64,000 nt of DNA from an uncultured delta proteobacterium. GTDB taxonomy: Bacteria > Myxococcota_A > Polyangia > Polyangiales > Polyangiaceae. Positions 12,915 to 39,942 of the stretch are shown here, in pieces; the first letter of the stretch is position 1; every line of letters starts with the position of its first letter. The stretch covers positions 512,001-576,000 of the forward strand of contig CAWKKR010000008.1 of NCBI GenBank assembly GCA_963850305.1, given 5' to 3'. The notes under the pieces were generated by a model, which ran no database searches, was not told where the DNA came from, and saw nothing but the letters and a program-made list of their open reading frames with translations. A program made the translations under genes and the position numbers.

Positions 12915-14330
12915 ATGCCTGAAACGCCCGATCGGGGGCTTCTACGGACCTACGAGTCGGTAGTCGCGCTGATCCAGCGACTCGCCGATGCCGGCTGGAT
13001 CGTGTTGGCGCAGTACGTCGCGTGCTGGCTCTATCCGGAGGAGTGGAAGCAATCGAACACGGTCGCCGCGCTCGTCGCGATGATCGCGTTCCATCTCGTC
13101 GCCGAGGTCAACGGCCTCTACCGTTCCTGGCGCGGCGCGCCGCTCAAGCACGAGGCGTTTCAAGCCCTGGCGACCTGGACGATCGCCGCGCCCGTCATCC
13201 TCTTCGTCGCGTTCATCACCAAGACCACGACTCAGTACTCGCGTTTCATCACGACCGTCTGGTTCGTCCTCGTCCCGGTCTTCGTGGTCTCGTGGCGGCT
13301 CGCCTTGCGGTTCGCGCTGATGGAGCTCCGTCGTCACGGCCGGAACTCCCGTACGGTCGCCATCGCCGGCCTCACGCCCATGGCTCAGCGCATCGCGCAG
13401 CGGATCGCGGCGGATCCGTACTCGGGGATGAAGATCCTCGGCTTCTACGACGATCGCAAGCCGGGGCGCCGCCACATCTTGCCGGACCTGTACGGCCCGC
13501 TCGTCGGCGATCTCGACCAGCTCGTCATCGACGCGCGGGACAGCAAGATCGATCGCATCTACATCACGTTGCCGCTCAAGGCCGAACCACGCATCAACTC
13601 GATCGTCCGAAAGCTGGCCGACACGACCGCGACCGTCTTCGTCGTGGCCGACTTCCTGGTGTTCGATCTGCTCCACGCCCAGTGGAGCCAGGTGGGTGAC
13701 ATCCCGGTCGTCAGCATCTTCGACACGCCGTTCCACGGCCTCGGCGGCTGGCTCAAGCGGCTCGAGGACATCGCGTTGAGCCTGCTGATTCTGACGATCA
13801 TCGCGATACCGCTCGCGCTCATCTCGATCGGCGTGAAGCTATCTTCCAGGGGCCCGGTGTTCTTCAAGCAGCGCCGCTACGGGCTGAACGGCAAGGAAAT
13901 CCGCGTCCTCAAGTTCCGGAGCATGACCGTCTGCGAAGACGGGCCCGTCGTCACGCAGGCGACCAAGCATGACGAGCGCGTGACGCGATTCGGCGCGTTC
14001 CTCAGACAGACGTCGCTCGACGAGCTCCCGCAGTTTCTCCAGGTGCTCACCGGGGAAATGAGCATCGTCGGCCCGCGTCCGCACGCCGTCGCCCACAACG
14101 AGCTGTATCGCGGCAAGATCCACGGTTACATGCTGCGCCACAAGGTGAAGCCGGGCATCACCGGCTGGGCGCAGGTGAACGGTTGGCGCGGCGAAACCGA
14201 CACCGTCGACAAGATGGAGAAGCGCGTCGAACACGATCTCGAATACATCCGGAATTGGGGACTGATCTGGGATCTGAAGATCATCATGCTGACCGTCTTC
14301 GGCGCAAAAAAGAGCGAGAACGCGTATTAG
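12915..14330 (+). CDS. wcaJ: Undecaprenyl-phosphate glucose phosphotransferase (priming glycosyltransferase)
   Basis: N-terminal TM segments; KRLEDI, GPVFFKQRRYG, KFRSM, SLDELPQ, GPRPHA, KPGITGWAQVNGWRGETD. Confidence 0.93.
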   Translation: MPETPDRGLLRTYESVVALIQRLADAGWIVLAQYVACWLYPEEWKQSNTVAALVAMIAFHLVAEVNGLYRSWRGAPLKHEAFQALATWTIAAPVILFVAFITKTTTQYSRFITTVWFVLVPVFVVSWRLALRFALMELRRHGRNSRTVAIAGLTPMAQRIAQRIAADPYSGMKILGFYDDRKPGRRHILPDLYGPLVGDLDQLVIDARDSKIDRIYITLPLKAEPRINSIVRKLADTTATVFVVADFLVFDLLHAQWSQVGDIPVVSIFDTPFHGLGGWLKRLEDIALSLLILTIIAIPLALISIGVKLSSRGPVFFKQRRYGLNGKEIRVLKFRSMTVCEDGPVVTQATKHDERVTRFGAFLRQTSLDELPQFLQVLTGEMSIVGPRPHAVAHNELYRGKIHGYMLRHKVKPGITGWAQVNGWRGETDTVDKMEKRVEHDLEYIRNWGLIWDLKIIMLTVFGAKKSENAY

Positions 14331-14366
14331 CAGGACCGCCGTCGTCTCCAGCGGGGCTCGGGGGCC

Positions 14367-15065
14367 GTGACTGCCCGGCTGCTCGAAGGTCTCCTCGACC
14401 CGTGCGTGGAAACGGAAGAAGTCGATCCGTTCCGGGATCCGATCGACGAGCTCTTGCCGGAGGAGGCGCATACGATCGCGAATGGTCGCGACGCGCGACT
14501 CCTGGAGTTCCGCGCCGGTCGTCACTGTGCGCGGACGGCGCTTGGGCGGCTCGGGGCACCGGCGGGTCCGCTCCTCAGATCGGAGGATAGATCGCCGATC
14601 TGGCCGGCGGGATTCGTCGGCTCGATCACCCACACGCGCGGCGGCGCTCGCGCCTTCTGCGGCGCGGCCGTCGCGCGTTCGAGCGAGGTGCACGCGCTCG
14701 GAATCGATGCAGAATTCGACACGCCGCTCGAGCGCGCGCTCTTTCGCCGGATCTTGACGGAGGTCGAGCGCGCGTGGATCTCGGACGCAGCGGAGAGCGA
14801 CCAGCCGGTGCTCGCGAAGCGCGTCTTCAGCGCGAAGGAAGCCGTGTACAAGTGTCAGTACCCGCTTTCGCGCACGTTCCTGGAATTCGCCGACGTCGAG
14901 CTCGCGCCGTTCACCGGGACGACCTTCACGGCGATGCTTCGAAAGCGCGCGCCGCCGTTCGGAGAGGGGCACACGTTCACGGGTCGGCAAGCTTTGCGCA
15001 GCGGCCTCGTCGTCAGCGCCGTCGCGATCGCAGCTCGAACGAGCGTCACGTCCGCGGGGCGCTGA
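14367..15065 (+). CDS. 4'-phosphopantetheinyl transferase (EntD/Sfp type)
   Basis: GRHCARTAL, PIWPAGFVGSITH, GIDAE, FSAKEAVYK. Confidence 0.9.
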   Translation: MTARLLEGLLDPCVETEEVDPFRDPIDELLPEEAHTIANGRDARLLEFRAGRHCARTALGRLGAPAGPLLRSEDRSPIWPAGFVGSITHTRGGARAFCGAAVARSSEVHALGIDAEFDTPLERALFRRILTEVERAWISDAAESDQPVLAKRVFSAKEAVYKCQYPLSRTFLEFADVELAPFTGTTFTAMLRKRAPPFGEGHTFTGRQALRSGLVVSAVAIAARTSVTSAGR

Positions 15066-15143
15066 CGACACGCGGGCCGGTCGACACGCTTTGCAGATCC
15101 TCGCGCGCATCCCTACATCCAAGTCTCTAACGGGCTGGGGCCA

Positions 15144-16524
15144 TTGGAGAGCGCCAATCTCGTCGCCTACGTTGCTTTGATCGTGTTCGCGCCGGTCGCC
15201 GTCGCGATCTACGGCGTGGTGCGCCCGACGCTCGCGACGGCCGCCGTACTCCTGGGCGCCGTGATGTATCTGCCCGAGCGAGTGAACTTCGATCCGCCCG
15301 GCCTTCCCCCGTTCGACAAGGCAACGATCGGCGGGCTCGCCGCTCTGGTCGGCAGCGCACTGGTCGCTCGACGAACGCTCACGAGCGCGCGGCCGGGCCG
15401 CGGATTCGATCTGTTCGCCCTGTTGCTCATCGCGGGCACGCTCGGCACCGCGCTCACGAACCCGGACGCATTGACTTATGGGTCGTCGTCGCATCCAGGC
15501 ACTGACTCCCTATGACGCCGTGTCGGACACCATCCGGGACTTGCTTTATCTGGTGTTCCCCTTCTTCCTCGGTCGCGCGCTCTACCGCAGCGCACGGGAT
15601 CTGAGAGATCTCATGGGCGTCGTGGTCATGGGCGCGCTCCTGTATTCGCCCCTGGTGCTCATCGAGCTCTGGCTGAGTCCGCAGCTTCACCGCTGGATCT
15701 ACGGCTTCCATCAGCACGACTTCTCGCAGGTGCTCCGGGACGGCGGATACCGGCCGATGGTCTTCATGGAAAACGGTCTCGCACTGGCACGGCTTCTGCT
15801 GACCGCGGCGCTCTTCGCCGCAACGCTCGCGCGGGCGCGCGAGAAGCTTCCCTTCTCGATCCCTCCGGCGCCGGTCGCCGCCTTTCTGACCGTGCTGTTG
15901 CTCGCGTGTCACAGCATGGGCGCCGCCGTGTACCTCCTCGTCTGTCTGCCCCTCCTGATCCTCGCTCGCCCGCGAGTCCACGTGCGCGTGGGAGCAATGC
16001 TCGCGACCGTCGTGCTCGCTTATCCCGTTCTCCGCGCCGCGGATCTGTTCCCCGTGAAACCCCTGCTCGATGTCTTCGCGAGGTTCAGCCAAGACCGGGC
16101 GGATTCGCTCGCCTTCCGCTTCGACAACGAGGCACAGCTCGTCCAGAAAGCGCTCGAGCGAGTCGTGTTCGGTTGGGGTGGGTTCGCGCGGGCCCACATT
16201 TTCGGGGAGTGGGGGAAGGACATCTCCGTCACGGACGGTCAGTGGATCATCGCCTTCGGAGATACGGGCGCGGTGGGCTTCCTGGGTTTGTTCGGGATGC
16301 TCGTGGGGCCCGTCGTGCTCGCCTGGCGGCGCATCACCGCCATCCCACGCGGGCCGACGCGCGTCCTGGTCGCGGGCATGGCGCTCACGACGGCGCTGAA
16401 CGTCGTGGACCTGTTGCCGAACGGGCTCTACTCGGCCCTGCCGCTCTTTTACGCAGGCGCTCTCGCAGGCGTCACGTGCGCACTTTCGAACGATTACGCG
16501 CTCGAAGGAGGAGTCGCCGAATGA
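15144..16524 (+). CDS. Wzy polymerase / O-antigen ligase-like membrane protein, frameshifted near 15480
   Basis: Two overlapping hydrophobic ORFs (15144-15515, 15478-16524) join if one G is removed at TATGGGTCG; YRPMVF, SLAFRFDNE, FGWGG, TDGQWII; lies in a polysaccharide operon. Confidence 0.7.
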
Positions 16525-17517
16525 GCCGAGTGGGCTGCGTCGTCATCGGTCGAAACGAAGCGTCGCGCCTCGGCCGGTGCCTCGCATCGGTGAAGCCTGA
16601 GTGCGATCGCATCGTCTACGTCGACTCCGCATCCGAGGACGCAAGCGTCGGTGTCGCGGAGCGGATGGGCGTGGAGGCGATCACACTCGACTCGAGCAGT
16701 CGTCTTTCCGCGGCCCGCGGCAGAAACGAAGGGTTTCTACACCTGACACGAACGGCGCCGGAGCTCGAGTTCGTGCAGTTCATCGACGGGGACTCGGAGC
16801 TCTCGCACAGCGTGGATCTCGCACGGGGTGGCGGAACTCGACCGCGACGGGGACGTCGCAGCGGCGTGTGGTCGGATCCGAGAACGGCATCCGCGGGCGT
16901 CCATTTACAACGCCATCAACGACATGGAGTGGGTCCACGGCACCGGAGACGTGGAGTGGTGCGCGGGCACGGCATTGTTCCGCGTCGCGCCGTTCCGGGA
17001 TGCCGAGGGATTCGATCCGACGCTCATCGCCGGTGAAGAGCCGGACCTGTGTGTGCGCCTGCGCGCGCGCGGATTTCGCTTTCGCGCGCTCGATCGGGAG
17101 ATGGCGGTCCACGACGCCGACATGACGCGCTTCTCGGAGTGGTGGACTCGCAACGTCCGTACCGGCCATGCCTACGCGGAAGCCGTCGCCAGGAGACCGG
17201 ACGACCCGGCGATGCACGCCGCCAGTGCCGTCCGGAGTATCGCGATCTGGGGACTCGCGCTGCCGGGGTTCTCCGTCGCGTTGATGCCGCCGACCCTCGG
17301 CGCGAGTCTCCTCGCGCCGTTCACCGCCTACCCGGCGTTGTTCGCCCGCGTGTACCGGACCATGCGCGCGCGCGGCTTTTCCCGCGACGACGCGCTGCTC
17401 TACGCCACGTTCTGCGTCCTGGGAAAGTTCCCGCAAGCGTTCGGACTGCTTCGCTTTCAATGGCTCAAGCGAAAAGGTCAGTCGAGCGATCTCATCGAAT
17501 ACAAGAGGCCCGCATGA
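16521..17517 (+). CDS. Glycosyltransferase family 2, frameshifted near 16805-16812
   Basis: MSRVGCVVIGRNE, VYVDSAS, AARGRN, FIDGD in one frame, continuing as ACGRIRER, GEEPDLC, HDA in the next. Confidence 0.8.
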
Positions 17518-18491
17518 AAGTTTTGGCGATCGTCGTGAACTATCGAACGGCGGAGCGCACGGTCGAAGCGGTCGCGTCGCTCCTCGACGCCCTCACGCAC
17601 CTGGACGGACGCGTGGCCGTCGTCGACAACGACTCGCAGGACGGCTCGCGTGAGCTCCTCGCTCGAACCATCGCGGAACGCGGCTGGAGCTCGCGCGTCG
17701 AACTCCTTTGCTCGCCGGTCAACGGTGGCTTCGGTTATGGCAACAACCTGGCGATCCGCCGGACCTACGACGCGGAGGATGCTCCCGAGTTTTTCTTCAT
17801 GCTGAACCCCGACGCCGTCGCGGAGCCGGACACGATCGCCGCGCTGCTCGAATTCATGGGGGAGACTCCCGACTGCGGCATCGCTGGGAGCCGCATCTTC
17901 GGCTTCGACGGCGAGCGACACGTCTCCGCGTTCCGCTTCCCGAGCCCGCTCGGCGAGCTCGAGGCTGGTCTGAAGCTCGGGCTCGCGACGCGCGTTCTGC
18001 GGCCCTGGGTCGTCGCGCCGCGTCCGCGCCACGCCACGGGAGAGGTCGACTGGGTGGCGGGCGCGAGCTTCATGGTGCGGCGCACGGTGTTCGATCGTGT
18101 CGGCCTCTTCGACGAGAAGTTCTTTCTCTACTTCGAGGAGGTCGATCTCTCTTTGCGGGCGAAGGCGCAAGGCCTCAAGACCTTCTACGTCCACGAAAGT
18201 CGCGTCAGCCACGAAGGGGCCGTGGCGACCGGCTTGAATGACACGAACCAGCCAGTTCCACCGTACTGGTTCGACTCGCGGAAACGGTTTTTCGCGAAGC
18301 ATCACGGCACGACGACCCTTTTGGCGGCAAACGTCTGCTTCACCGTCGGATTTCTTCTCTTTCGAGTACGGCGAAGGATCCAGCAGAAACCCGATCGCGA
18401 CCCGCCCAATCTTCTCTTCGACTTCATCCGGCACAACCTCCCCACACTCCCGGCCGCTCCGCAGGCCGGAGCTGCGGCGCTCGTTCAATGA
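17514..18491 (+). CDS. Glycosyltransferase family 2
   Basis: MKVLAIVVNY, VVDNDS, NGGFGYGNN, LNPD, GASFMVR, FFLYFEEVDL; ATGA overlap with the previous gene. Confidence 0.9.
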   Translation: MKVLAIVVNYRTAERTVEAVASLLDALTHLDGRVAVVDNDSQDGSRELLARTIAERGWSSRVELLCSPVNGGFGYGNNLAIRRTYDAEDAPEFFFMLNPDAVAEPDTIAALLEFMGETPDCGIAGSRIFGFDGERHVSAFRFPSPLGELEAGLKLGLATRVLRPWVVAPRPRHATGEVDWVAGASFMVRRTVFDRVGLFDEKFFLYFEEVDLSLRAKAQGLKTFYVHESRVSHEGAVATGLNDTNQPVPPYWFDSRKRFFAKHHGTTTLLAANVCFTVGFLLFRVRRRIQQKPDRDPPNLLFDFIRHNLPTLPAAPQAGAAALVQ

Positions 18492-19072
18492 ATCGCGCTG
18501 GGCTCATGGTCGTCGCGGCGCTCGCATGTTCGGCCTGCGGAGCGTCCCACCCCTATGTGTGGGTGGATGATCTCCCTCGCTCCGCAACGGCCGAGGTGCC
18601 CCAGATTCGAGCGGGCGATCGACTGTACGTCCTAGTCAAAGGGCAGGATGCGCTGACCGGCGAAGTCCCCGTTCGTCTCGACGGCAACATCGTTCATCCC
18701 GTCTTCGGCGTCGTGGCCGTCGCCGGCACATCGCCTCGCGAGGCAGCGCGACGCATCGAGGCGCGCCTCCGGAACGTCGTACTGGATGCGAACGTCTCGG
18801 TCGCCATCGCGGCGCGCCTTCCATACCAGGTCAGCGTGGTCGGAGAAGTGACGCACCCTGGACCGCTCGAGCTCGAGCCGGGGGAAGGCGTACTGCAGGC
18901 GCTCGCGAGAGCCGGCGGGTTCACCGAGTTCGCGAACAGAAGCGGCATCTACGTCCTTCGCCAGCGCCCCGAGGACGAACGCGTCCGCTTTCGCTACGAC
19001 GATCTCGCGGGCGGCGATGCACGGAGTCTAGGGTTTCGTCTGCACGACGGTGATGTCGTCGTCGTCGAGTAG
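18488..19072 (+). CDS. Short polysaccharide export (OPX/Wza-family) protein
   Basis: Lipoprotein-like signal (LACSAC), IRAGDRL, VRLDGNI, VVGEVTHPG, ALARAGG, LHDGDVVVV; 194 aa with no C-terminal outer-membrane helix. Confidence 0.85.
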   Translation: MNRAGLMVVAALACSACGASHPYVWVDDLPRSATAEVPQIRAGDRLYVLVKGQDALTGEVPVRLDGNIVHPVFGVVAVAGTSPREAARRIEARLRNVVLDANVSVAIAARLPYQVSVVGEVTHPGPLELEPGEGVLQALARAGGFTEFANRSGIYVLRQRPEDERVRFRYDDLAGGDARSLGFRLHDGDVVVVE

Positions 19073-19077
19073 CTATC

Positions 19078-20382
19078 ATGCACTTGGCTCTCGGCGCGCT
19101 CGCTTTCACGCGATTGCTCGGCGCGCTGACCGCGGACGCCGTCGCAGGCGGCCGAACCGAAGTCATGGCCGGCATCGCTCCCGTGCTCCCCGGCGAGTCG
19201 TCCGAGGGCTCCGTCGGCGCGGCGCTCACGCCGTTCGGTGCGCTGCAACTCTCCGAAGAGACGTGGCACCTCGGGCTCAAGTACGCGCCGCGTCTTCTCT
19301 GGCGCGCACCCAACGCCGTCAACGACGGCCGTCCACTGCTGCTGCAGAGCGGCGCGCTCGAACACGAGGCCCTGCTCGGACGTTCGCTCACGCTGACGAC
19401 CGAGGTTCAGGGTAGCGCCGGACGCGTCGACTACAGCATGTACGCCCTTCAGGCGACACCGGGCGGCTCGGTGTCGCCCGCGGGAACCGGCGCTCAACCC
19501 GGGCAGCCTCAGACGACGACACCGGGAACCGCTGCGCCCTCCGCGACGACTGGACAGGCGGGAGTAGCGCCGTCCCAGCTCTCCCTGACGGTCATCGATC
19601 TCTACGACGTGTCGGCGGACACGAAGCTCCAGGCCCACACGGACGCGCGCACGACGCTGACGCTCGGCGCGTCAGGCGGCGACAACGGCCCAATAGGCGC
19701 CGCGAGCGAGAGCTACCCGCGACACACCCGCGCCGCGCTCGAGCCGTCGCTTCGATACCAGCTCTCACCCACCGACAACCTCCGCATGCCGCTCTCGAGC
19801 GAGTACCATCGGGTCAACGGTGTCACCCTCGTGGACGACAGCGCCGAGCTCGAATGGGAGCATCGCTTCCTGCCGCAGACGACACTGCTCCTCGCCGCGG
19901 GCGGCTTGTACGCGAAGCCCCTCGACCCCGCCGGCAACGGCACCTTCTTTCCCTCGGCCGACGCGAGCCTCTCGCACGCCCTCGTGTACGAGCGCGGCTT
20001 GCGGATCCAGGGGACGCTCGATGTCGCTCTTCAGCCGCTCCTGTTCGTGCTCGATGCAGACTTTCGTCCCATCGCGAGCGTGCAAGCGGCGTTCGACATG
20101 ATCGTGCCGCCGCGCCTCCGAGCCGGCCTCCGCGCCTCCTTCTCCACGACGGCCACGGCCAGGCCGTACACACCGGGCGAAGTCGAAACTTACTTCGTCG
20201 CGGAGGCGCCCATCGTCTACGACGTGAGCCCCAACGTCTCGTTCGAGTGCGGCGCGCGGAGCATCTGGAGCGCGCCTCATCTCTCCGAGAGCTTCCAGCT
20301 CGAGAACGCGCAGCTCTGGGGCTACCTCGCGATCACCGCCGTGCTCGGCACGAACGACGATCCGATCGAGATGACGCGGTAA
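19078..20382 (+). CDS. Putative outer-membrane beta-barrel for polysaccharide export (EpsX/Wzp-like)
   Basis: Signal peptide, alternating amphipathic strand pattern, directly downstream of a short OPX gene. Confidence 0.55.
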   Translation: MHLALGALAFTRLLGALTADAVAGGRTEVMAGIAPVLPGESSEGSVGAALTPFGALQLSEETWHLGLKYAPRLLWRAPNAVNDGRPLLLQSGALEHEALLGRSLTLTTEVQGSAGRVDYSMYALQATPGGSVSPAGTGAQPGQPQTTTPGTAAPSATTGQAGVAPSQLSLTVIDLYDVSADTKLQAHTDARTTLTLGASGGDNGPIGAASESYPRHTRAALEPSLRYQLSPTDNLRMPLSSEYHRVNGVTLVDDSAELEWEHRFLPQTTLLLAAGGLYAKPLDPAGNGTFFPSADASLSHALVYERGLRIQGTLDVALQPLLFVLDADFRPIASVQAAFDMIVPPRLRAGLRASFSTTATARPYTPGEVETYFVAEAPIVYDVSPNVSFECGARSIWSAPHLSESFQLENAQLWGYLAITAVLGTNDDPIEMTR

Positions 20383-20734: not shown

Positions 20735-20781
20735 GTGTCGAGGTTGAGGTCGATAGCTGCGACGACTGGCGCGAGCCCGCA

Positions 20782-21212
20782 CGCTCGAGACGTGCCTCTC
20801 GACGCTCGAGACGTGCCTCTCGACGCTCGAGACGTGCCTCTCGACGCTCGAGACGTGCCTCTCGACGCTCGAGACGTGCCTCTCGACGCTCGAGACGTGC
20901 CTCTCGACGCTCGAGACGTGCCTCTCGACGCTCGAGACGTGCCTCTCGACGCTCGAGACGTGCCTCTCGACGCTCGAGACGTGCCTCTCGACGCTCGAGA
21001 CGTGCCTCTCGACGCTCGAGACGTGCCTCTCGACGCTCGAGACGTGCCTCTCGACGCTCGAGACGTGCCTCTCGACGCCGACGGACGCATCCTCGCGCCG
21101 CGTGATGCGCCTCTCGACGCTCGAGACGTGCCTCTCGACGCTCGAGACGTGCCTCTCGACGCCGACGGACGCGCCCTCGCGCCGCGTGAGCTGGCTCTCG
21201 ACGCCGACGGAC
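20782..21212. repeat. 21-bp tandem array (CGCTCGAGACGTGCCTCTCGA): 14 perfect copies, then degenerate and 2 further perfect units
   Basis: 20782-21075 is 14 x 21 bp; 42-bp variant blocks at 21076-21117 and 21160-21201; 2 perfect units at 21118-21159. Confidence 0.97.
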
Positions 21213-21284
21213 CCTATCGTTCCATTCAGGGTCGACGTAGCGCGGAGCGCTTACTCACTCGCGCAATGCGCGGCGCAGCGCGCC

Positions 21285-21620: not shown

Positions 21621-21687
21621 GCGGGTTCGCCGCGAACGGGTCCGGGCATTCGACGACCCTGCCGACGTCTGCGAGCAAGGGCGCGCC

Positions 21688-25950: not shown

Positions 25951-25953
25951 CGG

Positions 25954-33228: not shown

Positions 33229-35297
33229 GACGACAGCTCGACTTGCTGGAACATGCCGGGCCGACTCGGGTCCGGGACGAACCACGCGGGGTTTCCGTTC
33301 GAATCCCGTCCTAGCCGCGCTCCGGGCAGCGGCGGCCGCGCGAGCGCGGCCGGCGAATCTCGTCGCAAGAATCCGCTTTGGGTAAGCTCGGTCACGCTCT
33401 CCTGAAACCGTTCGACCACGAAGTCGACGTCGGAATCCGTGTGCGCGCACGTGAAGAACGATGGACGATGGTCGATCGCGTGCACGCCCTTGTCGCGTAA
33501 GAGCAAGAAGAGCAAATCTCGAAATGGCGTATGCACGGTAAACTCGATGCCGACGACCGAACTGAATCGATGGACCACGAGCGGAGCGCCGGTCCGTTCG
33601 AACCAGGCGTTCATGGCCGTCGCGAAGCGTTCCGCCCTGGCGTCCATCACCTCGTGCGCGGACGCGCCGAGAGCTCGGAGGTGCTCGAGCACGGCCTTTG
33701 CCGCCGCGAGCCCGAGCGGGTGGCGCGCCAGGGAACCCACGAAGTAAGTGACGCCGGCTTCCGGCATCGAATCGTCGCCATATTGCCAGTTGCCGCCGTC
33801 GAAGACGTCCATGTACGCGCGCCTGCCCGCGATGGCGCCGATGGGCAGCCCGCCGCCAAGCGCGCCGCCGTATGCCGCGAGGTCGGCCTTCACACCGAAC
33901 TTTTCCTGAGCGCCGCCGGGCGCGCATCGAAAGCCGGTCATGGTTTCGTCGAAGACCAGGGCAACGCCGACCTCCGTGGTCAGAGCCCTGAGGTCGCGCA
34001 CGAATGAACCGAGTTCGTGTTGCAGGCCCTGCAGGGGCTCGACGAGGACGGCCGCGATGTCGCGATGCCGCGCTCGAATCGTATCGAGCGCAGCCGGGTC
34101 TCCTTGCGACAGGATCGAGACGTTTTCGATGGCCGACCGCGCGACGCCGATGGCGGCGGGGATCGCGCGTGATCCGCGCCCGCGGCGCACCACGACCTCG
34201 TCGAACGCGCCGTGATACGCGCCATCGAAGACGACGAGCCCCTGACGTCCCGTCACCGCACGAGCAGCACGAATGGCACCCTGCATCGCCTCGGCGCCCG
34301 TGCTGCAGAAGAACACGCGCTCCATCCCGGTGGCGTCGCAGAAGAGACCGGAAACATCCTCGACGAGTGGATGTTGCGACCCGGTCTCGACGCCTCGATC
34401 GAGCTGCGTGAGGAGCGCCTCCTTCAAGAATGCAGGCGAATATCCGAAGAAGCTCTCGCCGTGCGCCGAGACCAGGTCGACGTACTCATTCCCGTCGAGG
34501 TCCCAGAATCGACACCCCGAGGAACGACTGGCCACGATCGGATAGGTGACCTCCTTGAGCTCCCTGCTGAAGCCACGCGCCGCGCGCGGGTCCGCCAGGT
34601 GCGCGCGGTTCTTCTGGGTGAACGCCTTCGATGACCTGGTCTTTTCGACGTAGCGCTCGACGAGGCTCGCGACGTATCGCTCCTGTTCGGCGGTCAGCGC
34701 AGCCGCGCGTTCGCGAGACGAGAAGACCGCGAAGCGCCGCCCAATCGAGAGCGGGGCGGATTCTGGGGCCCGCGCGCGTTCGGACGGACCCGCGTCCAGA
34801 GCGAGCGCGTCGCGCGTCCGCTCGATGGCCGAGGACAACGCCGAGACGACGACCGAGGACGAGGCGTCTCCGATCGCCGTCAAGATCTCGAGCTGCCGCG
34901 CCATCACTCCGAGCTGACGACCGACCACGTGTGCGGCGAAACCGGCGGGCACGAGGGTGTCTCGTTGGTTCGCGAGCGGAGGGTGGAGAAGTCTCTCCGT
35001 CGGCTCACCCTCGTCGACGGGCAACGTCGCGTCGAGATGCTCCGCGAGCGCTCCCACCGACGATAGGTCTTCGAGCAAACGGCGCAGCTTGAGAGAAACG
35101 CCGAATTTCGCGGAGACCTGCTGCGCAATCTGCGTCAAGAGCAACGAGTCGAAGCCGAGCTCCACGAACGTTGCCGGTACGTCGCGTTCGGCGATCGGCT
35201 CCCCCGAGGTGCGAAGGACGAGCTCGCACAGTTCCGCCACGAGCCGCTCGCGTCGGGGCTGTCGCGACACGTCATCAGGACGATCCGTGGTCAGCAT
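33225..35297 (-). CDS. ACP plus class III aminotransferase-like domain (PKS-associated)
   Basis: ACP LGFDSLL; WDLDGNEYVD, GAYHG, LVEP, FDETMTGFR; the YGK lysine position reads G. Confidence 0.88.
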   Translation of the reverse strand: MLTTDRPDDVSRQPRRERLVAELCELVLRTSGEPIAERDVPATFVELGFDSLLLTQIAQQVSAKFGVSLKLRRLLEDLSSVGALAEHLDATLPVDEGEPTERLLHPPLANQRDTLVPAGFAAHVVGRQLGVMARQLEILTAIGDASSSVVVSALSSAIERTRDALALDAGPSERARAPESAPLSIGRRFAVFSSRERAAALTAEQERYVASLVERYVEKTRSSKAFTQKNRAHLADPRAARGFSRELKEVTYPIVASRSSGCRFWDLDGNEYVDLVSAHGESFFGYSPAFLKEALLTQLDRGVETGSQHPLVEDVSGLFCDATGMERVFFCSTGAEAMQGAIRAARAVTGRQGLVVFDGAYHGAFDEVVVRRGRGSRAIPAAIGVARSAIENVSILSQGDPAALDTIRARHRDIAAVLVEPLQGLQHELGSFVRDLRALTTEVGVALVFDETMTGFRCAPGGAQEKFGVKADLAAYGGALGGGLPIGAIAGRRAYMDVFDGGNWQYGDDSMPEAGVTYFVGSLARHPLGLAAAKAVLEHLRALGASAHEVMDARAERFATAMNAWFERTGAPLVVHRFSSVVGIEFTVHTPFRDLLFLLLRDKGVHAIDHRPSFFTCAHTDSDVDFVVERFQESVTELTQSGFLRRDSPAALARPPLPGARLGRDSNGNPAWFVPDPSRPGMFQQVELSS

Positions 35298-35307: not shown

Positions 35308-38300
35308 TCATGCGATCTCCTCGGGCATGGCGCTCGCTCGGCTGAGCCGAGAAACTGCGTCGAGCTCCCGGGTCATCCGATCGAGCTGGTCTAGAACGAG
35401 TCGCTCGATGTCCGCGCCGCGTGCCGTCGCGACGAACGAGGCGCCGGGGCTCTCTTGCCGTGGCGCTGGCTCGAGAAAGTGACGATCGCGGGCGAAGGGA
35501 TACGAGGGGAGCGAGACGACCCGCCGAGGAGCCGCCGCCTGCGCAGCCTCCCAGTCGATCGAAACGTGAGACAACCAGAGCTCGCCGAGCGCGGCCTGGA
35601 ACGCAGCTTCCTCGCGCTCGGGTGCATCGCCGAGAGTGCTCACTGCGATTTGCTGCGTACGCCCGGTTGCGACTCGACGAGCGAGCGCCGAGCAGGTGCG
35701 ACCGGGGCCCACTTCGAGGACGAGCCGTGCGGGGTCGACGAACAGCGTCTCGAGTGCGTCGTGGAAGCGCACCGGCAATCGAAGATGCCTTGCCCAATAA
35801 TGCGGATCGCACGCTTCTTCCCCCGTGAGAAGCGCGCCCGTGGCCGTGGACACCACGGGGATCTTCGGTGGAGACATGCGCACGCGTCGCACCGACTCCG
35901 TGAAAGGGGCGATGACGGGGTCCATCATGCTGGAGTGGAACGCGTGGGAGGTCTTGAGCAGACGCACGGGCAGGCCCTCCCTCTCGAGGTCCGCAGCGAA
36001 CGCGGCCACCGACTCCCGCAAACCCGAGACGACGCACGAACTCGGCCCGTTCACGGCGGCGAGGGAGACTCCGGCCGGCAATCTGGCCTGGAGAGCCGTG
36101 GCGGGCGCTCGCGTGGCAAGCATCGCTCCGGGTGGCAGCGCTTGCATCAGACGGCCGCGCTCTGCCACGAGCAACGCGGCGTCTTCCAGCGAGAAGACGC
36201 CGGCGAGACAGGCCGCGACGAACTCGCCGACGCTGTGCCCTGCGAGCGCCCGCGGTTCGACCCCCAGGCTCCTCAGCGAGGACGACAGCGCATACTCGAT
36301 CGCGAAGAGCGCCGGCTGCGTGAACAGCGTCTGCTGGAGGTTCGCTTCCGCATCGCCGTCGTCGCCGCCACCGAAAAACATGACCTCGCGGAGCTCGCAA
36401 CCCAGAGCCTGCGTCAGGAGTTCGGAACATTGATCGATGCCCCGGCGAAACACCGGATCGACGGCGTAGAGGCCGCGACCCATGCCCGCGTACTGCGCAC
36501 CCTGGCCGGGAAAGACGAAGGCCAGCGCGGGCTCGGACGAACTCGTCGCGCACGACGCCCCGCGGGAGGCACGTAGAGCCGAAACTGCACTTTCTCGATC
36601 CGCTGCGACGACCGCGCGACGCCGCGAAAAATGAACGCGTCGCGATTGGAGCACATGGGCCACGTCGCCCAGGTCGACCCGTGGATGCGCATCGAGGAAC
36701 GCCGCGAGCTCCTCGGTAGACCGAGCGACTGCGTCGTCCGTCTTCGCCGACAGCAGAAGGAGGTGCGCGCCGCGCTGGTGGCCCTCCCGGACGGGAACCG
36801 GCGCTTCCTCGACGATCACGTGCGCGTTCGTTCCACCGACGCCGAAGGAGCTGACCCCGGCGATCCGCGGCTGCCCGTCGGGGACGTGCCAGGGGGCGAG
36901 CGACGTCTGGACGAAAAATGGCGTCTTCGGAAAATCGATATTCGGGTTCGGCGCGTCGAAGAACAGGCTCGGCGGGAGCGTCCGGTGGTAAAGCGCGAGC
37001 GCGGTCTTGATGAGCCCGGCCACGCCGGACGCCGCCGTCAGGTGCCCGAGGTTGCTCTTGACGGATCCAAGCGCGCAAAATCCGGCCTCCTCGGTGCGAG
37101 CTCGAAACGCGCGGGTCAAAGCCTCGACCTCGACGGGGTCGCCGATCGGCGTCGCCGTCCCATGAGCCTCGACGTAGGAGATCATCCGCGGGTCGACGTC
37201 CGCGTCAGCGTGCGCCATTTCGATCACGGCGACCTGACCGGCCACGCTCGGCGCCGTGTAGCTGGCTTTGCATCCGCCGTCGTTGTTGACGGCCGTTCCG
37301 CGGATCACCGCATACACCCGATCTCCATCCCGCTTCGCGTCGGAGAGTCGCTTGAGCACGACCATGGCGGCGCCGTCGCTGAACACCGTCCCGGTCGCGC
37401 TCGCGTCGAAGGGGCGCGTATGACCGTCGGCGCTCAGCATCGCGCCTTCCGTGTGCACGTGTCCGGACCGCTGCGGCACGGTGACGGACGCCGCGCCCGC
37501 GAGAGCCACGTCGCACTCGCGGTTGAAGAGGCTCCGAACCGCCTGGCAGACTGCGACGAGCGACGTCGAGCACGCCGTGTGAACGGAGACGGCGGGGCCC
37601 GTGAGATCGAGCTTGTGGGCGATGCGCGTCGCGACGAAGTCCTTGTCGTTCCCGAGCAGGACGCCAAACTCCCCCACTGCGTCCACGCGATCGCGCCGCG
37701 TAACGACGTTCCTCAGGAGATATGTGTTGTGTCCGGTTCCCGCGAACACACCGACGGGCCCGGCCGTCTTTCCAGGGACGATGGCCGCGTCTTCGAGCGC
37801 GGCCCACGCGACCTCGAGGAGAACTCGCTGCTGCGGATCCAGAATCTCGGCGTTCGAACCGGTCTCGCCGAAGAACGCGGCGTCGAACCGGTCCGCGTCC
37901 TCGACGATCCCTCGCGCCTTCACGTAATTCGGACTCGATGCGTCCACCGATTCGTCGAGCTCGCCGTCGCCGAAAAACCGTACCGACTCGACTCCAGCGC
38001 AGAGATTTTCCCAGAAGACGCCGACGTCGTTCGCTCCAGGGAACTTGCCGGCCATGCCGACGATGGCGACCGGTTCGCGCAGCGGGGGGCGACGCACGAC
38101 ACGCGCGCGGTCCACCGCGGGCTGGTTGCTCCCCAGAGCGAGCGCGACTCCGCGGACAGTGGGTCGCTCGAAGAAGGTGACGACGGAGACGGTGCGGCCC
38201 AGCTCGCGACCAAGCGCGAGGAGGCTCTCGACCGCCAGCAACGAAGAGCCACCTAGATCGAAGAATGCGTCGTCGCGCCCGACGCGCTCGACACGAAGAA

Positions 38301-39942
38301 TCCGACACCACACGTTCGCGACGGCGATCTCCAGGGCTCCCTGCGGCTCGCGGTACTCCGTGTCGAGAGCAGGTCTCGCTGCAGAAGGCGCCGGGAGGGC
38401 ACGGCGGTCCACTTTTCCGTTTTCGGTGAGCGGTAGCTTGTCGAGGAGGACGATGGCGGACGGAATCATGTAGTCCGGCAGCCGCCTCTTGCAGCGCGCG
38501 TGCAGCTCCTCACGAAGTTGCGGATTCGGTGCCGAGGCGGAAACGTACGCGACGAGTCGCTTGTCACCTGGCGCGTCCTCGCGCGCCACGACCACGACTT
38601 CACCGACGCCCCGGTGCTCCGCCAGAAGGGACTCGATCTCACCGAGCTCGATCCTGAATCCCCGGATCTTGACCTGCTGATCGATGCGTCCGAGATATTC
38701 CATGTCGCCCGAGGGCAAGCGACGAGCGGAGTCGCCGCTCCGGTAGAGCCGGCGAAGGACGCCGCCGATCTCCTTGTCGATGAAGCGCGCAGCAGTCAGT
38801 TCCGGACGGTTCAGGTAGCCGCGCGCCAGACCGGGCCCTTCCACGAAGATCTCGCCAGGCTCGCCGTCTTTCACCTCGGTCAGGGCGTCGTCGAGGAGAT
38901 GGACGCGAAGATCGGGGATCGGCAGGCCGATGAGACTCCCCTGCCTCCCGTTCAAATCACTTCGCGTGACTGGCCGGTAAGTCACGTGAACGGTGGTCTC
39001 GGTGATACCGTACATGTTCACGAGCCGTGGGCGCTCGTCGCCGAAGCGCTCGATCCAGGGGCGAAGGCTCTGGAAGTCGAGAGCCTCCCCGGCGAACACG
39101 ATGCTCCGGAGCGAGAGCTGCGGATCCCGCGTCTCGGCGGTCACGGCCATCGAAAACTGTCGGAAGGCGGACGGGGTCTGACTGAGGACGGTCACGTGCT
39201 CTCGCGCGAGAAGGTCGCGAAAGTCGGTCGGGGAACGACTGACCGCGTACGGCACGACAACCAGCGTTGCGCCGTGAAGCAACGCGCCCCACATCTCCCA
39301 GACGGACACGTCGAACGCGTACGAATGAAACAGGCAGAAGACGTCCGCCGGACCGAAGGCGAACCAGTTCGCGGTCGACTCGAACAGGCGAACGACGTTC
39401 GAGTGCGCAATCGGTACGCCCTTGGGACGACCCGTGGACCCGGACGTATAGATGACGTACGCGAGATCCCCTGCCTTCACTCCGGACACGACGCGATCAG
39501 CGGACTCGACATCCGTATCTTCGATGAACACGGTCCGGAGGTGCACGGGGCTCGGCACGTCGATGAGACCGCGGTGCGTGACCAGCACGGGCGCAGCCGA
39601 GTCCTCGAGCATGAAGCCGGCCCGCTCTCGCGGATACGCCGGATCGAGGGGAACGTAAGCACCACCGGCCTTGAGGATGCCGACGATCCCGATGACGACG
39701 TCGGGCGAACGATCGACCGCCAGCCCGACGAGCGAACCGGGTCCTACGCCGTGTCTCGTCAGGCGCTGCGCGAGGCGATTGGCGCGTCGATCGAGCTCTC
39801 CGTAACTGAGCCTGTGACCTTCGAATACGACGGCCGTCGCGTCGGGCGCCTCGTCCACGCGGCGTTCGAAGATCTCGTGCAAGCCACGTTCTGTGGCCGC
39901 CGCTGACCACGGTTCTTGCGAGCGATGGGGGGCCCTCTGCAC
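35308..39942 (-). CDS. Hybrid NRPS/PKS, A-T-KS-AT
   Basis: A: YTSGSTGRPKG, YGITETT; T: LGGSS; KS: TACSTS, HGTAT, KSNLGH; AT: GHSVG, HAFHS (malonyl-type); start uncertain (GTG). Confidence 0.92.
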   Translation of the reverse strand: MQRAPHRSQEPWSAAATERGLHEIFERRVDEAPDATAVVFEGHRLSYGELDRRANRLAQRLTRHGVGPGSLVGLAVDRSPDVVIGIVGILKAGGAYVPLDPAYPRERAGFMLEDSAAPVLVTHRGLIDVPSPVHLRTVFIEDTDVESADRVVSGVKAGDLAYVIYTSGSTGRPKGVPIAHSNVVRLFESTANWFAFGPADVFCLFHSYAFDVSVWEMWGALLHGATLVVVPYAVSRSPTDFRDLLAREHVTVLSQTPSAFRQFSMAVTAETRDPQLSLRSIVFAGEALDFQSLRPWIERFGDERPRLVNMYGITETTVHVTYRPVTRSDLNGRQGSLIGLPIPDLRVHLLDDALTEVKDGEPGEIFVEGPGLARGYLNRPELTAARFIDKEIGGVLRRLYRSGDSARRLPSGDMEYLGRIDQQVKIRGFRIELGEIESLLAEHRGVGEVVVVAREDAPGDKRLVAYVSASAPNPQLREELHARCKRRLPDYMIPSAIVLLDKLPLTENGKVDRRALPAPSAARPALDTEYREPQGALEIAVANVWCRILRVERVGRDDAFFDLGGSSLLAVESLLALGRELGRTVSVVTFFERPTVRGVALALGSNQPAVDRARVVRRPPLREPVAIVGMAGKFPGANDVGVFWENLCAGVESVRFFGDGELDESVDASSPNYVKARGIVEDADRFDAAFFGETGSNAEILDPQQRVLLEVAWAALEDAAIVPGKTAGPVGVFAGTGHNTYLLRNVVTRRDRVDAVGEFGVLLGNDKDFVATRIAHKLDLTGPAVSVHTACSTSLVAVCQAVRSLFNRECDVALAGAASVTVPQRSGHVHTEGAMLSADGHTRPFDASATGTVFSDGAAMVVLKRLSDAKRDGDRVYAVIRGTAVNNDGGCKASYTAPSVAGQVAVIEMAHADADVDPRMISYVEAHGTATPIGDPVEVEALTRAFRARTEEAGFCALGSVKSNLGHLTAASGVAGLIKTALALYHRTLPPSLFFDAPNPNIDFPKTPFFVQTSLAPWHVPDGQPRIAGVSSFGVGGTNAHVIVEEAPVPVREGHQRGAHLLLLSAKTDDAVARSTEELAAFLDAHPRVDLGDVAHVLQSRRVHFSRRRAVVAADRESAVSALRASRGASCATSSSEPALAFVFPGQGAQYAGMGRGLYAVDPVFRRGIDQCSELLTQALGCELREVMFFGGGDDGDAEANLQQTLFTQPALFAIEYALSSSLRSLGVEPRALAGHSVGEFVAACLAGVFSLEDAALLVAERGRLMQALPPGAMLATRAPATALQARLPAGVSLAAVNGPSSCVVSGLRESVAAFAADLEREGLPVRLLKTSHAFHSSMMDPVIAPFTESVRRVRMSPPKIPVVSTATGALLTGEEACDPHYWARHLRLPVRFHDALETLFVDPARLVLEVGPGRTCSALARRVATGRTQQIAVSTLGDAPEREEAAFQAALGELWLSHVSIDWEAAQAAAPRRVVSLPSYPFARDRHFLEPAPRQESPGASFVATARGADIERLVLDQLDRMTRELDAVSRLSRASAMPEEIA

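Follow-up and report, generated by a model that had tools for sequence, protein, structure and literature searches.

In assembly-line modules of the iturin/mycosubtilin and microcystin type, KS-AT-ACP-AMT is followed by a C domain, and the aminotransferase (AMT) acts on an ACP-bound beta-keto intermediate; such lines begin with a fatty acyl or polyketide starter, and their products are free cyclic lipopeptides. The locus described here lies in a window of 64,000 nucleotides (the whole stretch of DNA that was analyzed) from what appears to be a soil MAG and shares with them the beta-amination logic of a class-III aminotransferase and the hand-on to an NRPS C domain, but it has an amino-acid-type starter A domain (TIGR01733), glycan neighbors and, past the ketide step, only three building blocks in its chain.

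Envelope glycopolymers are decorated via carriers in the Dlt D-alanylation of teichoic acids and the AlmEFG glycylation of lipid A, both single-step systems with dedicated transferases (DltB/DltD, AlmG), and the tetronate side chain of the Vibrio cholerae O1 O-antigen is also a carrier-protein-dependent decoration. The likeness to our locus, as we suggest below, is that adenylation and a phosphopantetheinylated carrier serve to bring an acyl or aminoacyl group to a glycoconjugate of the cell surface, whereas the window has three A domains, a KS, an AMT and a TE. Related loci contain simple A-domain or ACP cassettes: a sister genome (G003) carries an AcpS-like PPTase, an ACP, an ACAD-like and a class-II aaRS-like protein, and loci L123 and L125 have stand-alone A-domain enzymes next to PGT, rmlB and wzx.

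The mycobacterial glycopeptidolipids are assembly-line products ending on sugars, and the Pks13 TE, which transfers mycolate to trehalose, is a precedent for a TE as acyl transferase onto a sugar. In both cases, to our knowledge, the sugars join a small-molecule lipid or peptide and there is no Und-PP/Wzx/Wzy polymer route. In comparisons with PDB entries, the window TE matches ordinary NRPS TEs (best match 7crn, 4e-21) at least as closely as it does the Pks13 TE (1e-11), and its similarity is that of an ordinary NRPS TE.

The carenaemins of Collimonas arenae Cal35 are made by cplA-K, a hybrid PKS/NRPS with KS/AT and aminotransferase, its own PPTase and a TE, and their production depends genetically on a PGT/GT/Wzx/Wzy locus (PMC8313283). 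The authors of that work propose, as a hypothesis, that a lipid-linked sugar unit receives the peptide and is then flipped (PMC8313283); besides this hypothesis, the excerpts of the literature that we covered yielded no other printed precedent for a peptide-ketide on a lipid-linked sugar. With cpl compared by its published description, the likeness to the window comprises a PKS/NRPS with KS/AT and AMT, the PPTase, the TE and the Wzy-type locus. According to the same excerpts, the two Collimonas loci are separated by a long chromosomal distance and give a diffusible antifungal of small size, whereas in the window the genes of the two sets are interleaved within a single variable locus, along with those for PCP, OPX and barrel.

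The Wzx/Wzy pathways of Myxococcus xanthus use a composite OPX/beta-barrel translocon, EpsY/EpsX (PMC9601211, PMC9603273). As far as the excerpted accounts describe it, the EpsY/EpsX pathway resembles the window in its WcaJ-type PGT, Wzx, Wzy and PCP, and in a short OPX without outer-membrane-spanning part, after which comes an EpsX-like barrel gene; the window differs in the FHA domain of its PCP and in the Ser/Thr-kinase-like gene that accompanies this PCP. We know of no NRPS/PKS part in the described M. xanthus loci.

Organization of the Locus

The locus consists of a plus-strand operon and a minus-strand string of genes, which are convergent. The left flank, the plus operon (assigned by Pfam and NCBIfam) and the region between both sets contain, in order:

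9506..10834, minus strand: rmlB, dTDP-glucose 4,6-dehydratase (TIGR01181, 471 bits), conserved left-flank gene
10984..12576, minus strand: acyl-CoA ligase (AMP-binding and AMP-binding_C; NF004837, 414 bits, below its cut-off)
12915..14330, plus strand: wcaJ-type undecaprenyl-phosphate hexose-1-phosphate transferase (PGT; Bac_transf and CoA_binding_3)
14367..15065, plus strand: Sfp-type 4'-phosphopantetheinyl transferase (PPTase; 4PPT_N and ACPS)
15144..16524, plus strand: wzy-like polymerase (Wzy_C/O-antigen-ligase family; Wzy_C E=7e-5, below cut-off)
16521..17517, plus strand: first GT2-family glycosyltransferase (Glycos_transf_2 and Glyco_trans_2_3)
about 17520..18491, plus strand: second GT2-family glycosyltransferase (Glycos_transf_2, E=7e-13)
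18488..19072, plus strand: short OPX, EpsY-like (Poly_export and SLBB), without the outer-membrane helix part
19078..20382, plus strand: EpsX-like predicted outer-membrane beta-barrel of 434 aa, OPX partner (ESM Atlas features)
20781..21162, no strand: 21-nt tandem repeat, about 18 copies (TRF score 667), between both convergent operons

The true start of rmlB is probably ATG 10555, and the gene shares 69-80% nt identity with its copies in same-genus genomes; rmlA, rmlC and rmlD are located elsewhere in the genome. The acyl-CoA ligase, divergent from wcaJ, is a conserved flank gene as well (64% aa identity to G003). WcaJ scores 532 bits with TIGR03023 (cut-off 410.75) and shares 80-83% aa identity within the genus. 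The PPTase starts 36 nt past wcaJ, and its place as second gene of this operon was correctly read in the original prediction.

The wzy gene is split over two frames (+1 change) near 15508-15512, and thus the window polymerase may be broken; its pieces share 42% and 33% identity with the Wzy of genome G032, there one 476-aa ORF. The first GT2 gene is also split over two frames (+1 change within 16803-16812), its pieces being 47% and 42% identical to an Ideonella GT2, and L123 has intact homologues. In soil-metagenome run X1, a 151-nt contig that spans this site and not the wzy site is identical to 16683-16834 save one letter missing at 16809, and therefore the GT2 break is probably an assembly error or a strain variant. 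Homologues of the second GT2 adjoin the Ideonella and Pedobacter lines. The best NCBIfam match of the OPX is EpsY (NF041843, 158 bits, below its cut-off), and it is 39% identical to its homologue in locus L092. The barrel protein has no Pfam or NCBIfam match; it shares 25% identity with the OPX-adjoining gene of L092, and its ESM Atlas features (0.98; 220/256 in common with the EpsX cluster, PF28089) offer a lead to an EpsX-like function. Related copies of the 21-nt repeat occur at other sites in the genome.

The minus string comprises, in order of transcription:

35308..39942, minus strand: hybrid A-T-KS-AT (Pfam; amino-acid-type A domain)
33225..35297, minus strand: stand-alone ACP plus class-III aminotransferase (PP-binding and Aminotran_3)
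25954..33228, minus strand: NRPS C-A-T-C-A-T-TE (Pfam; likely start ATG 33228)
24547..25950, minus strand: Wzx flippase of the MOP/PST family (Polysacc_synt_3, E=1e-46)
23502..24566, minus strand: Ser/Thr-protein-kinase-like gene (Pkinase E=2e-9, partial, profile positions 1-145 of 263)
21688..23466, minus strand: FHA domain (E=1e-18) fused to a PCP-like chain-length/co-polymerase part

All intergenic gaps of this string are 35 nt or less. The PKS and AMT genes are 10 nt apart, the AMT stop overlaps the likely NRPS start as ATGA, the NRPS stop codon (25954-25956) is separated by 3 nt from the wzx ATG (25950), as had been noted before, wzx overlaps the kinase-like gene, and 35 nt precede the FHA-PCP gene. 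The earlier description of PKS, AMT, NRPS and wzx genes in one string is retained, while its co-polymerase turned out to be an FHA-PCP fusion, with a kinase-like gene between it and wzx. The FHA-PCP reaches 82.5 bits with TIGR03007, under the cut-off of 278.85, and is 33% identical over 600 aa to its L092 homologue; the kinase-like protein is 36% and 42% identical to the L092 and L109 kinases, both with full domains.

The catalytic motifs of the assembly line are intact (AT GHSVG and HAFH; KS TACSTS, HGTAT and NLGH; NRPS HHLVCDG, SHLIWDG, GFSGG and GGH). The A-T-KS-AT protein is 51% identical to the Ideonella line, and ACP-AMT is 42-49% identical to 80 loci across phyla, cyanobacterial lipopeptide-type loci being distant members of the same AMT family. 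The first A domain is no fatty-acyl ligase but belongs to the amino-acid type (TIGR01733, 434 bits). Both of the Condensation domains that were found in the genome belong to this NRPS, the one NRPS found, and a PF01648 search of the genome gave two matches, the Sfp-type PPTase, the only one of its type found, and an AcpS-like one in a 134-aa frame on contig C4.

A Variable Region Between Conserved Flanks

Within the genus, the conserved left flank runs through wcaJ-PPTase, and the right one comprises ORF 39916, a methyltransferase and dnaJ. In G003, 24.8 kb of different polysaccharide genes, with no NRPS/PKS among them, lie between these flanks, and in G004 and G005 both flanks directly adjoin. 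Since sister species hold different polysaccharide genes at this site, the NRPS/PKS occupies the variable, strain-specific middle of a polysaccharide locus whose flanks are conserved, and in this middle part every called gene of this genome belongs to glycan machinery or NRPS/PKS (Pfam, NCBIfam).

The PPTase shares merely 46-53% aa identity with same-genus copies. The wcaJ-PPTase pair is kept in 6/6 same-genus genomes and in G032, where it includes the sole PPTase found, all without this NRPS/PKS. The pair, judged by this distribution, predates the NRPS and is no proof of coupling, because it also occurs in relatives without any NRPS. Of the claim that each operon holds parts that the other needs, the PPTase half is therefore weak. 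The wzx and PCP genes, required by the plus operon, are present in this genome only behind the NRPS genes.

Proposed Pathway

It is quite possible, and we propose it tentatively as the preferred reading, that a peptide-ketide is put on an undecaprenyl-linked sugar repeat before flipping, polymerization and export. The domain order suggests that the line likely makes a short diamino-acyl peptide. A1 would load an amino acid, to which KS and AT would add malonate, the ACP of the ACP-AMT protein serving as the carrier; the AMT would convert the beta-keto group to an amine, yielding a 3,4-diamino acyl unit, and two C-A-T modules would append two amino acids. The Sfp-type PPTase beside wcaJ would prime all four carrier domains. 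In the cytoplasm, the TE or another transferase would pass the chain to the Und-PP-oligosaccharide built by WcaJ and the GT2 enzymes, at an amine or hydroxyl group of this oligosaccharide. Wzx would then flip the decorated unit and Wzy polymerize it, with FHA-PCP and the kinase-like protein controlling the process and export occurring via the EpsY-like OPX and the EpsX-like barrel.

Coupling is supported by the operon junctions, the variable-locus position, the Wzx and TE of L109, the AMT lines embedded in other glycan clusters, PGT enrichment and the carrier-protein cassettes, and we also count in its favor the single NRPS and single Sfp-type PPTase found in the genome and the dependence of the carenaemin line on a Wzy-type locus. 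Against it stand the PGT-poor homologues, the scattered PGT label, the older wcaJ-PPTase pair, the ordinary TE and the frame change in wzy. No dedicated peptide-to-sugar transferase was found, and Pfam scans of selected window ORFs gave no DltB/DltD- or AlmG-type family. In addition, flexible regions of genomes tend to collect both polysaccharide and secondary-metabolite genes, which makes their co-location more probable.

Related Loci and Alternative Explanations

The first alternative, which we consider somewhat unlikely, is that there are two independent products, an ordinary free-molecule NRPS/PKS having settled in a recombination-prone variable polysaccharide region, with co-transcription meaning co-regulation at most. 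Homologous lines that mostly lack polysaccharide neighbors, which the original prediction had named as evidence against itself, are indeed what was found: 38/47 genomes (about 80%; many contigs are short) have no PGT on the contig of the line up to 30 kb away, 4/6 family or order relatives have none within 20 kb, and in L017, a single-scaffold Burkholderiales genome, the PGTs are more than 500 kb from the AMT line. On the AMT tree the PGT label is scattered (5 changes, no clustering), and an exporter is missing at 33/41 homologous loci, glycan genes near or not. The independence of the wcaJ-PPTase pair and the ordinary TE also fit two products.

However, the same nesting occurs in at least five lineages. 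Ideonella oryzae has, in this order, PGT, PKS-NRPS-PPTase, GT2/hexapeptide/GT2, WecG, Wzz, Wzy, Wzx and GTs. A Terracidiphilus MAG has NusG-like, WecG, GT2, OPX and, further on, PGT and Wzx, followed by A-T, KS-AT-ACP-AMT-C-A-T, C-T-TE, GT4, GT4 and GT2, all on one strand from PGT onward. In the Acidobacteriota MAG L011 a homologous line lies inside or beside a complete glycan cluster, and that of a Polyangiaceae MAG has WcaJ (56%), kinase, FHA-PCP, OPX and barrel homologues in common with the window. The window Wzx, the sole Wzx-family match among the Pfam-scanned cluster ORFs, has its nearest relative found in L109 (65% identity), also downstream of an NRPS TE gene and in an operon with GT4 genes (C-A-T-TE, GT4, wzx, GT4, kinase; gaps of 24 and 11 nt). 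The TEs of both loci group together (47% identity, SH-aLRT 99), and a TE-wzx-kinase block is conserved between them. In Terracidiphilus and L109 glycan genes lie on both sides of the line in a co-directional array. AMT-type lines are within 30 kb of a PGT of the same contig in 9/47 genomes versus about 1.7 expected, a hand-made sum over the 47 genomes, that is, about five times expectation, and the position of wzx and PCP only behind the NRPS genes also argues against two products.

We regard as improbable the alternative that, as in the carenaemin system, a small diffusible peptide-ketide borrows the lipid-linked route merely to gain one or a few sugars and to pass the inner membrane via Wzx, and is released as a low-mass glycopeptide outside any polymer. 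In its favor, the cpl PKS/NRPS, with KS/AT and AMT at its start, gives a product of about 835-850 m/z that, in the excerpted account, needs a Wzy-dependent locus (PMC8313283), and in Bacteroidota relatives only GT2 pairs and a PPTase adjoin the line, and a PGT is absent within 38 kb. The lack of a separate exporter, already remarked upon in the original prediction, was confirmed for ABC, MFS, RND and MATE types in Pfam scans of selected ORFs from the rest of the window. Nevertheless, Wzy, PCP and OPX adjoin the line in the window, the Polyangiaceae MAG, Ideonella, Terracidiphilus and L011, and the first two also hold the EpsX-like barrel homologue.

Finally, it is very improbable that the MOP-family Wzx exports the peptide-ketide itself, or that the latter serves polysaccharide production as a signal or regulator and not as a building block: directly after the TE gene, both the window and the Polyangiaceae MAG do have a flippase-like gene (in the MAG it encodes a MatE-like MOP member, which BLASTP does not relate to the window Wzx), but the window protein matches Polysacc_synt_3, its orthologues at 35-44% identity are located in plain polysaccharide loci, and the wcaJ/wzy/OPX pathway needs a Wzx.

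Returning to the decoration of a lipid-linked sugar repeat, the linkage recurs in four other named lineages and L109, and most homologous lines are without it. The proposed coupling is partly supported, in that the linkage is more than one chance adjacency, given the variable-locus position, the Wzx after the TE in L109 and the AMT lines in four other lineages. The arrangement of a complete peptide/polyketide line in one gene string with a sugar flippase is seen again among distant bacteria, in other phyla too.

Organization of the locus

Genes in the window were called from ORF lists and third-position G+C and were named by Pfam and NCBIfam. The source genome, apparently a MAG (6.26 Mb, 11 contigs, 66% G+C), contains here two convergent gene strings, one on each strand.

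Features of the two gene strings (window coordinates)
12915-14330, plus: wcaJ (TIGR03023, 532 bits)
14367-15065, plus: Sfp-type PPTase (Pfam)
15144-16524, plus: wzy-like gene (Wzy_C below cut-off)
16521-17517, plus: first GT2
about 17520-18491, plus: second GT2
18488-19072, plus: short outer-membrane export protein (OPX); top NCBIfam match EpsY of Myxococcus, below its cut-off
19078-20382, plus: 434-aa putative barrel, no family match; placed by ESM Atlas beside an EpsX cluster (0.98, a lead only)
21688-23466, minus: FHA domain fused to a co-polymerase (PCP)-like protein
23502-24566, minus: Ser/Thr-kinase-like gene
24547-25950, minus: wzx
25954-33228, minus: C-A-T-C-A-T-TE NRPS
33225-35297, minus: ACP and class-III aminotransferase (ACP-AMT)
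35308-39942, minus: A-T-KS-AT

In the minus string, the PKS gene is followed after 10 nt by the AMT gene, which overlaps the NRPS gene as ATGA; 3 nt separate the NRPS from wzx, wzx overlaps the kinase gene, and 35 nt lie between the latter and the FHA-PCP gene. The layout of both strings in the original prediction is borne out by the ORF, Pfam, NCBIfam and junction data, with corrections on the co-polymerase and the reading frames. A scan of 12400-26200 for promoters and terminators gave nothing above shuffles, and no RNA sequencing run was found.

The 1.3-kb gap separating the convergent operons contains a 21-nt tandem repeat (about 18 copies, 20781-21162), and one copy of a 121-nt direct repeat (20308-20428 and 20614-20734) overlaps the 3' end of the barrel gene. 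The repeat region looks like a dispersed repeat element, since stretches 85-93% identical to it occur on contigs C1, C4, C7, C8 and C11 of the same genome (about 70% on C2).

The wzy-like gene (about 15508-15512) and the first GT2 gene (16803-16812) each contain a +1 frame change, at most 1.4 kb apart, and the 14 kb of NRPS/PKS genes are open. The wzy break is an extra C within a short C run. The GT2 break probably reflects an assembly error or differing strains, since a 151-nt soil-metagenome contig agrees with the window at every position of 16683-16834 apart from one omitted letter at 16809, inside the break. Read support came from two soil-metagenome runs of one study (shares of 0.08 and 0.05), whose coverage was limited to 16034-16184 and 16527-16834. 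Elsewhere in this genome, the match of an RmlA homologue (contig C1, 809441-809857) spans the first 139 of 293 residues, in the one segment reported per match. The assembly may carry scattered indel errors.

The assembly line

All A, T/ACP, KS, AT, C and TE domains were matched by Pfam, and together with the PPTase they describe a modular hybrid type I PKS-NRPS. The line contains the motifs TACSTS, HGTAT, NLGH, GHSVG, HAFH, HHLVCDG, SHLIWDG, GGxS and GFSGG, which we take to be core motifs of the KS, the AT, both C domains, the carrier domains and the TE. The aminotransferase (Aminotran_3, E=7e-39) has an N-terminal PP-binding domain, and the next gene opens with a Condensation domain. This KS-AT-ACP, AMT, C order is that of iturin/microcystin-type beta-amination, but in place of a fatty-acyl (FAAL/acyl-ligase) or polyketide starter there is here an A domain of the amino-acid type (TIGR01733, 434 bits), whose top PDB matches are NRPS A domains. 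The three A domains were aligned with each other, and 1AMU appears only about 19th in the A-domain PDB match list. The two Condensation domains found in the source genome are both in this NRPS, and one other type I PKS is located 1.2 Mb from the line.

The polysaccharide machinery

WcaJ, the phosphoglycosyl transferase (PGT), contains Bac_transf and CoA_binding_3 domains and exceeds the TIGR03023 cut-off of 410.75 bits. Wzx belongs to the MOP/PST family (Polysacc_synt_3, E=1e-46, 159.7 bits against a 23-bit cut-off). The OPX matches Poly_export and SLBB above their cut-offs, and its putative barrel partner is assigned from ESM Atlas features alone. Two papers describe a composite OPX/barrel translocon for Myxococcus (PMC9601211, PMC9603273). 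The wzy-like gene, read in two frames, gives a Wzy_C match of 23 bits, below the 31.7 cut-off of a family that also holds ligases; its product is 42% identical to the Wzy ORF of G032, a genome from another family of the same order.

The putative co-polymerase gene encodes an FHA-PCP fusion with a weak PCP match (TIGR03007, 82.5 bits, cut-off 278.85; no Wzz Pfam match), and the kinase-like gene stands between it and wzx. The PCP-like part shows weak coiled-coil-type matches and a hydrophobic C-terminal end, and a full-length homologue of the fusion adjoins the OPX gene in a Polyangiaceae MAG (L092). The usual partner of a PCP is a BY-kinase; in the window the PCP-like protein with its N-terminal FHA domain is paired with a Ser/Thr-kinase-like gene (21688-24566). 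The pair is kept in the Polyangiaceae MAG (L092:4815-8094), and the kinase is also found in a metagenome contig (L109:12998-13924). This gene pairing suggests Ser/Thr-phosphorylation control of polymer export.

A variable middle between conserved flanks

DNA searches within the genus revealed a conserved left flank (DHDPS, MgtE, deaminase, pip, rmlB, acyl-CoA ligase, wcaJ, PPTase) and a conserved right flank (ORF 39916, methyltransferase, dnaJ), with no conserved stretch between them. All genes called in the variable middle of the source genome belong to glycan machinery or to the NRPS/PKS. In G003, of the same genus, these flanks enclose 24.8 kb of different genes without NRPS/PKS (GT2s, FemAB/GNAT-like, OPX, GtrA-type GT, AcpS-like PPTase, ACP, ACAD-like and class-II aaRS-like). 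In two further members of the genus, G004 and G005, the acyl-CoA ligase gene abuts ORF 39916, and wcaJ-PPTase is found elsewhere with other GT sets. In serotype-variable polysaccharide loci the middle genes specify polymer structure, and the layout observed here is the usual anatomy of such loci.

The G003 insert includes a cassette (L145:3634-6447; G003:C136:23634-26447) of an AcpS-like PPTase, a 99-aa ACP (PP-binding, 29 bits), an ACAD-like protein and a class-II aaRS-like protein (weak tRNA-synt_2b match), which we take to resemble amino-acid:carrier-protein ligase cassettes.

Two PPTases are encoded in the source genome, one AcpS-like and the other of the Sfp type. The wcaJ-PPTase pair is found in all six same-genus genomes (amino acid identity 80-83% for WcaJ and 46-53% for the PPTase) and also in a rhamnose-type polysaccharide locus of G032 that lacks NRPS/PKS, where it includes the only PPTase found in that 100%-complete genome. 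The pair thus predates the assembly line. The PPTase had been proposed as a link between the two pathways; an Sfp-type PPTase does adjoin wcaJ, but as evidence of coupling it is weak, the pair being older than the line. The PPTase diverges far faster than WcaJ and differs among genus members with different variable regions, which fits, without proving, co-variation with the content of the variable region. The single PPTase of the 4.2-Mb G032 genome (L104; G032:C8:590000-609999), of the Sfp type with 4PPT_N, lies between a FemAB-like gene and OPX/wcaJ and presumably serves the fatty-acid ACP too.

Relatives of the line and of the flippase

No protein closely related to ACP-AMT was found: the best 80 loci in a one-genome-per-species GTDB set, which do not include the Collimonas genome, are 26-49% identical and come from many phyla. 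With the window's proteins as queries, a WcaJ-like neighbour was found inside the 10-kb flanks in 4 of the 80. All PF02397 genes and the AMT were located genome-wide for 47 of these loci (L011-L053, L063, L064, L074, L078), and a PGT lies within 30 kb of the AMT on the same contig in at least nine (G041, G046, G060, G062, G064, G067, G073, G080, G084), against about 1.7 expected, a hand sum that uses the PGT numbers listed and genome sizes in rounded form. Because nine PGT matches were not listed, the counts are minimum values. Within the nine, G062 and G064 are kin, and in G073 housekeeping genes separate the line from the PGT. Among the matches listed, seven Pedobacter genomes have a PGT at 38-44 kb.

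The extended gene contexts are stronger evidence for linkage than the PGT counts. Ideonella oryzae encodes a PGT, A-T-KS-AT-ACP-AMT, C-A-T-C-T-TE, a gene without assigned function, a PPTase and GT2/hexapeptide/GT2, and onward WecG-STAS, Wzz, Wzy, Wzx, GT2, a methyltransferase and GT4; identities with the window are 51% for the PKS, 47% for AMT, 47% for WcaJ, and 47% and 42% for the two parts of the first GT2. A Terracidiphilus MAG has NusG-like, WecG-STAS, GT2, OPX, more genes, PGT, Wzx, the whole line, GT4, GT4 and GT2, on a single strand from the PGT onward. In an Acidobacteriota MAG the line is followed by PCP-kinase, GT2, Wzx, GTs, Wzy and PGT. Common to the window and the Polyangiaceae MAG are the line (PKS 45%, AMT 42%), a flippase-like gene directly after the TE gene, WcaJ (56%), the kinase, FHA-PCP (33% over 600 aa), and OPX and barrel homologues.

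The NRPS-linked polysaccharide clusters of Terracidiphilus and Ideonella each contain a WecG/TagA-family glycosyltransferase fused to a STAS domain (L094:1473-2975, L097:866-2083). The NRPS of the Acidobacteriota MAG (L011:12181-19357) is split into many short ORFs bearing pieces of C and A domains, reflecting either a heavily frameshifted assembly or decay. One Variovorax genome carries two AMT-type PKS copies (G053:C34:78218-79684 and G053:C43:58233-59699), both within ORFs of roughly 2475 aa.

Six genomes from the family or order that carry an AMT-type line were compared: G034 has PGT, GT4, PPTase, Wzx and GT2 at 8-14 kb, another has OPX and GT4 at 12-18 kb, and four have none within 20 kb. 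In a single-scaffold Burkholderiales genome (L017), over 500 kb separate the line from the PGTs. The predicted linkage recurs in several phyla, above expectation, but most homologous lines lack glycan neighbours.

Wzx was found at E<=1e-75 in 14 of 401 genomes of the phylum, the source genome included, the other 13 at 35-44% identity. None of ten fetched loci of these relatives contains a multimodular NRPS. In two of them a stand-alone A-domain enzyme (34-36% identity with the A domains of the window) has PGT, rmlB and wzx genes as neighbors, together with a homologue of the first GT2 that is intact. The top Wzx homologue in the metagenome collection (65%, L109) lies in the order C-A-T-TE, GT4, wzx, GT4, kinase, with identities to the window of 44% for the last module, 47% for the TE and 42% for the kinase. 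In a tree of 13 fused TE domains, this TE groups as sister to that of the window (SH-aLRT 99), and the tree showed nothing further. The L109 module and the stand-alone A-domain loci indicate that polysaccharide loci of the lineage carry adenylation/carrier cassettes of graded complexity.

Proposed pathway and alternatives

We tentatively favor, as a serious possibility, that the peptide-ketide is put on the lipid-linked repeat unit before flipping, polymerization and export. An amino acid would be loaded by the first A domain and extended with malonate by KS and AT on the ACP of the ACP-AMT protein; the AMT would aminate the beta-keto group, yielding a 3,4-diamino acyl unit, and the two NRPS modules would add two amino acids. 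The TE or another enzyme would off-load the product onto an Und-PP-oligosaccharide made by WcaJ and the GT2s, and the decorated unit would be flipped by Wzx, polymerized and exported via the OPX/barrel pair. Possible analogies are Dlt, AlmEFG, the Vibrio cholerae O1 tetronate genes, glycopeptidolipids and the Pks13 TE. Unlike Dlt/Alm aminoacylation, with its dedicated membrane transferase, no such transferase family (DltB MBOAT with DltD, AlmG) appears in Pfam scans of selected window ORFs. A broader and more doubtful proposal is that multimodular PKS-NRPS lines within Wzx/Wzy loci form an unrecognized multi-phylum class of peptide-ketide-polysaccharide conjugates, in which the TE off-loads directly onto the undecaprenyl-linked repeat unit and the peptide is a serotype-like variable decoration of the secreted polymer.

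That the line and the polysaccharide are unrelated, with independent products, appears rather unlikely given the recurrent linkage. It agrees with the rarity of glycan neighbors among homologous lines, with the ordinary similarity of the TE in PDB comparison and with the scatter of the PGT label on the AMT tree (5 changes, no clustering), a quick tree in which the window stands beside L037 (SH-aLRT 92, unstarred); all three count against coupling. Polysaccharide and assembly-line genes also both tend toward flexible genome regions, which counts likewise. When flanking ORFs of 15 loci were clustered all against all, no dedicated peptide-to-sugar transferase emerged, which also counts against coupling. 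A conserved linker enzyme was rejected, the PGT being the only family common to all glycan-linked loci in this set.

A small glycopeptide like carenaemin is an improbable product. Carenaemin of Collimonas involves a PKS/NRPS with a KS/AT and AMT start that requires a distant Wzy-dependent locus, and in its authors' proposal the product is joined to a lipid-linked sugar unit (PMC8313283). In the window, by comparison, both halves are physically joined in one locus, which also includes genes for polymer export; counterparts of it exist in several phyla. Carenaemin was the only precedent found for an NRPS/PKS coupled to a Wzx/Wzy locus in full-text literature outside subscription journals. The Sphaerotilus/Leptothrix sheath, a peptide-bearing polysaccharide, is a possible product of an Ideonella-type locus; as a known product it was set aside after a limited literature check in which neither NRPS nor such sheath genes were mentioned.

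An exporter or signal role is the least credible reading by far. The reported absence of an exporter held, with no ABC, MFS, RND or MATE exporter in Pfam scans of selected window ORFs. The argument drawn from it was dropped because exporters are rare in the family regardless of glycan neighbors: 8 of 41 clade loci have one (seed tblastn: ABC, RND, MFS, MOP), with no complementary pattern between exporters and glycan genes.

The original prediction of a peptide-ketide attached to, or anchoring, the polysaccharide is sustained in part, by the linkage and the placement in a variable region, but it is weakened by the rarity of glycan neighbors, the weak PPTase argument and the loss of the exporter argument.

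If the peptide-ketide ends on the polysaccharide, two biosynthetic fields that are studied and mined separately would be joined. Besides free metabolites, assembly lines would then yield structural decorations of exopolysaccharides that vary between strains. Genome-mining software that ends a cluster at the edge of the NRPS would overlook the real product. A thioesterase or other transferase would accept a lipid-linked glycan, and the open carenaemin hypothesis could be put to a direct test in cultured carriers, Ideonella oryzae for example. Such a coupling could also explain the recurring carrier-protein cassettes and the Sfp-type PPTase in the polysaccharide loci of this lineage.
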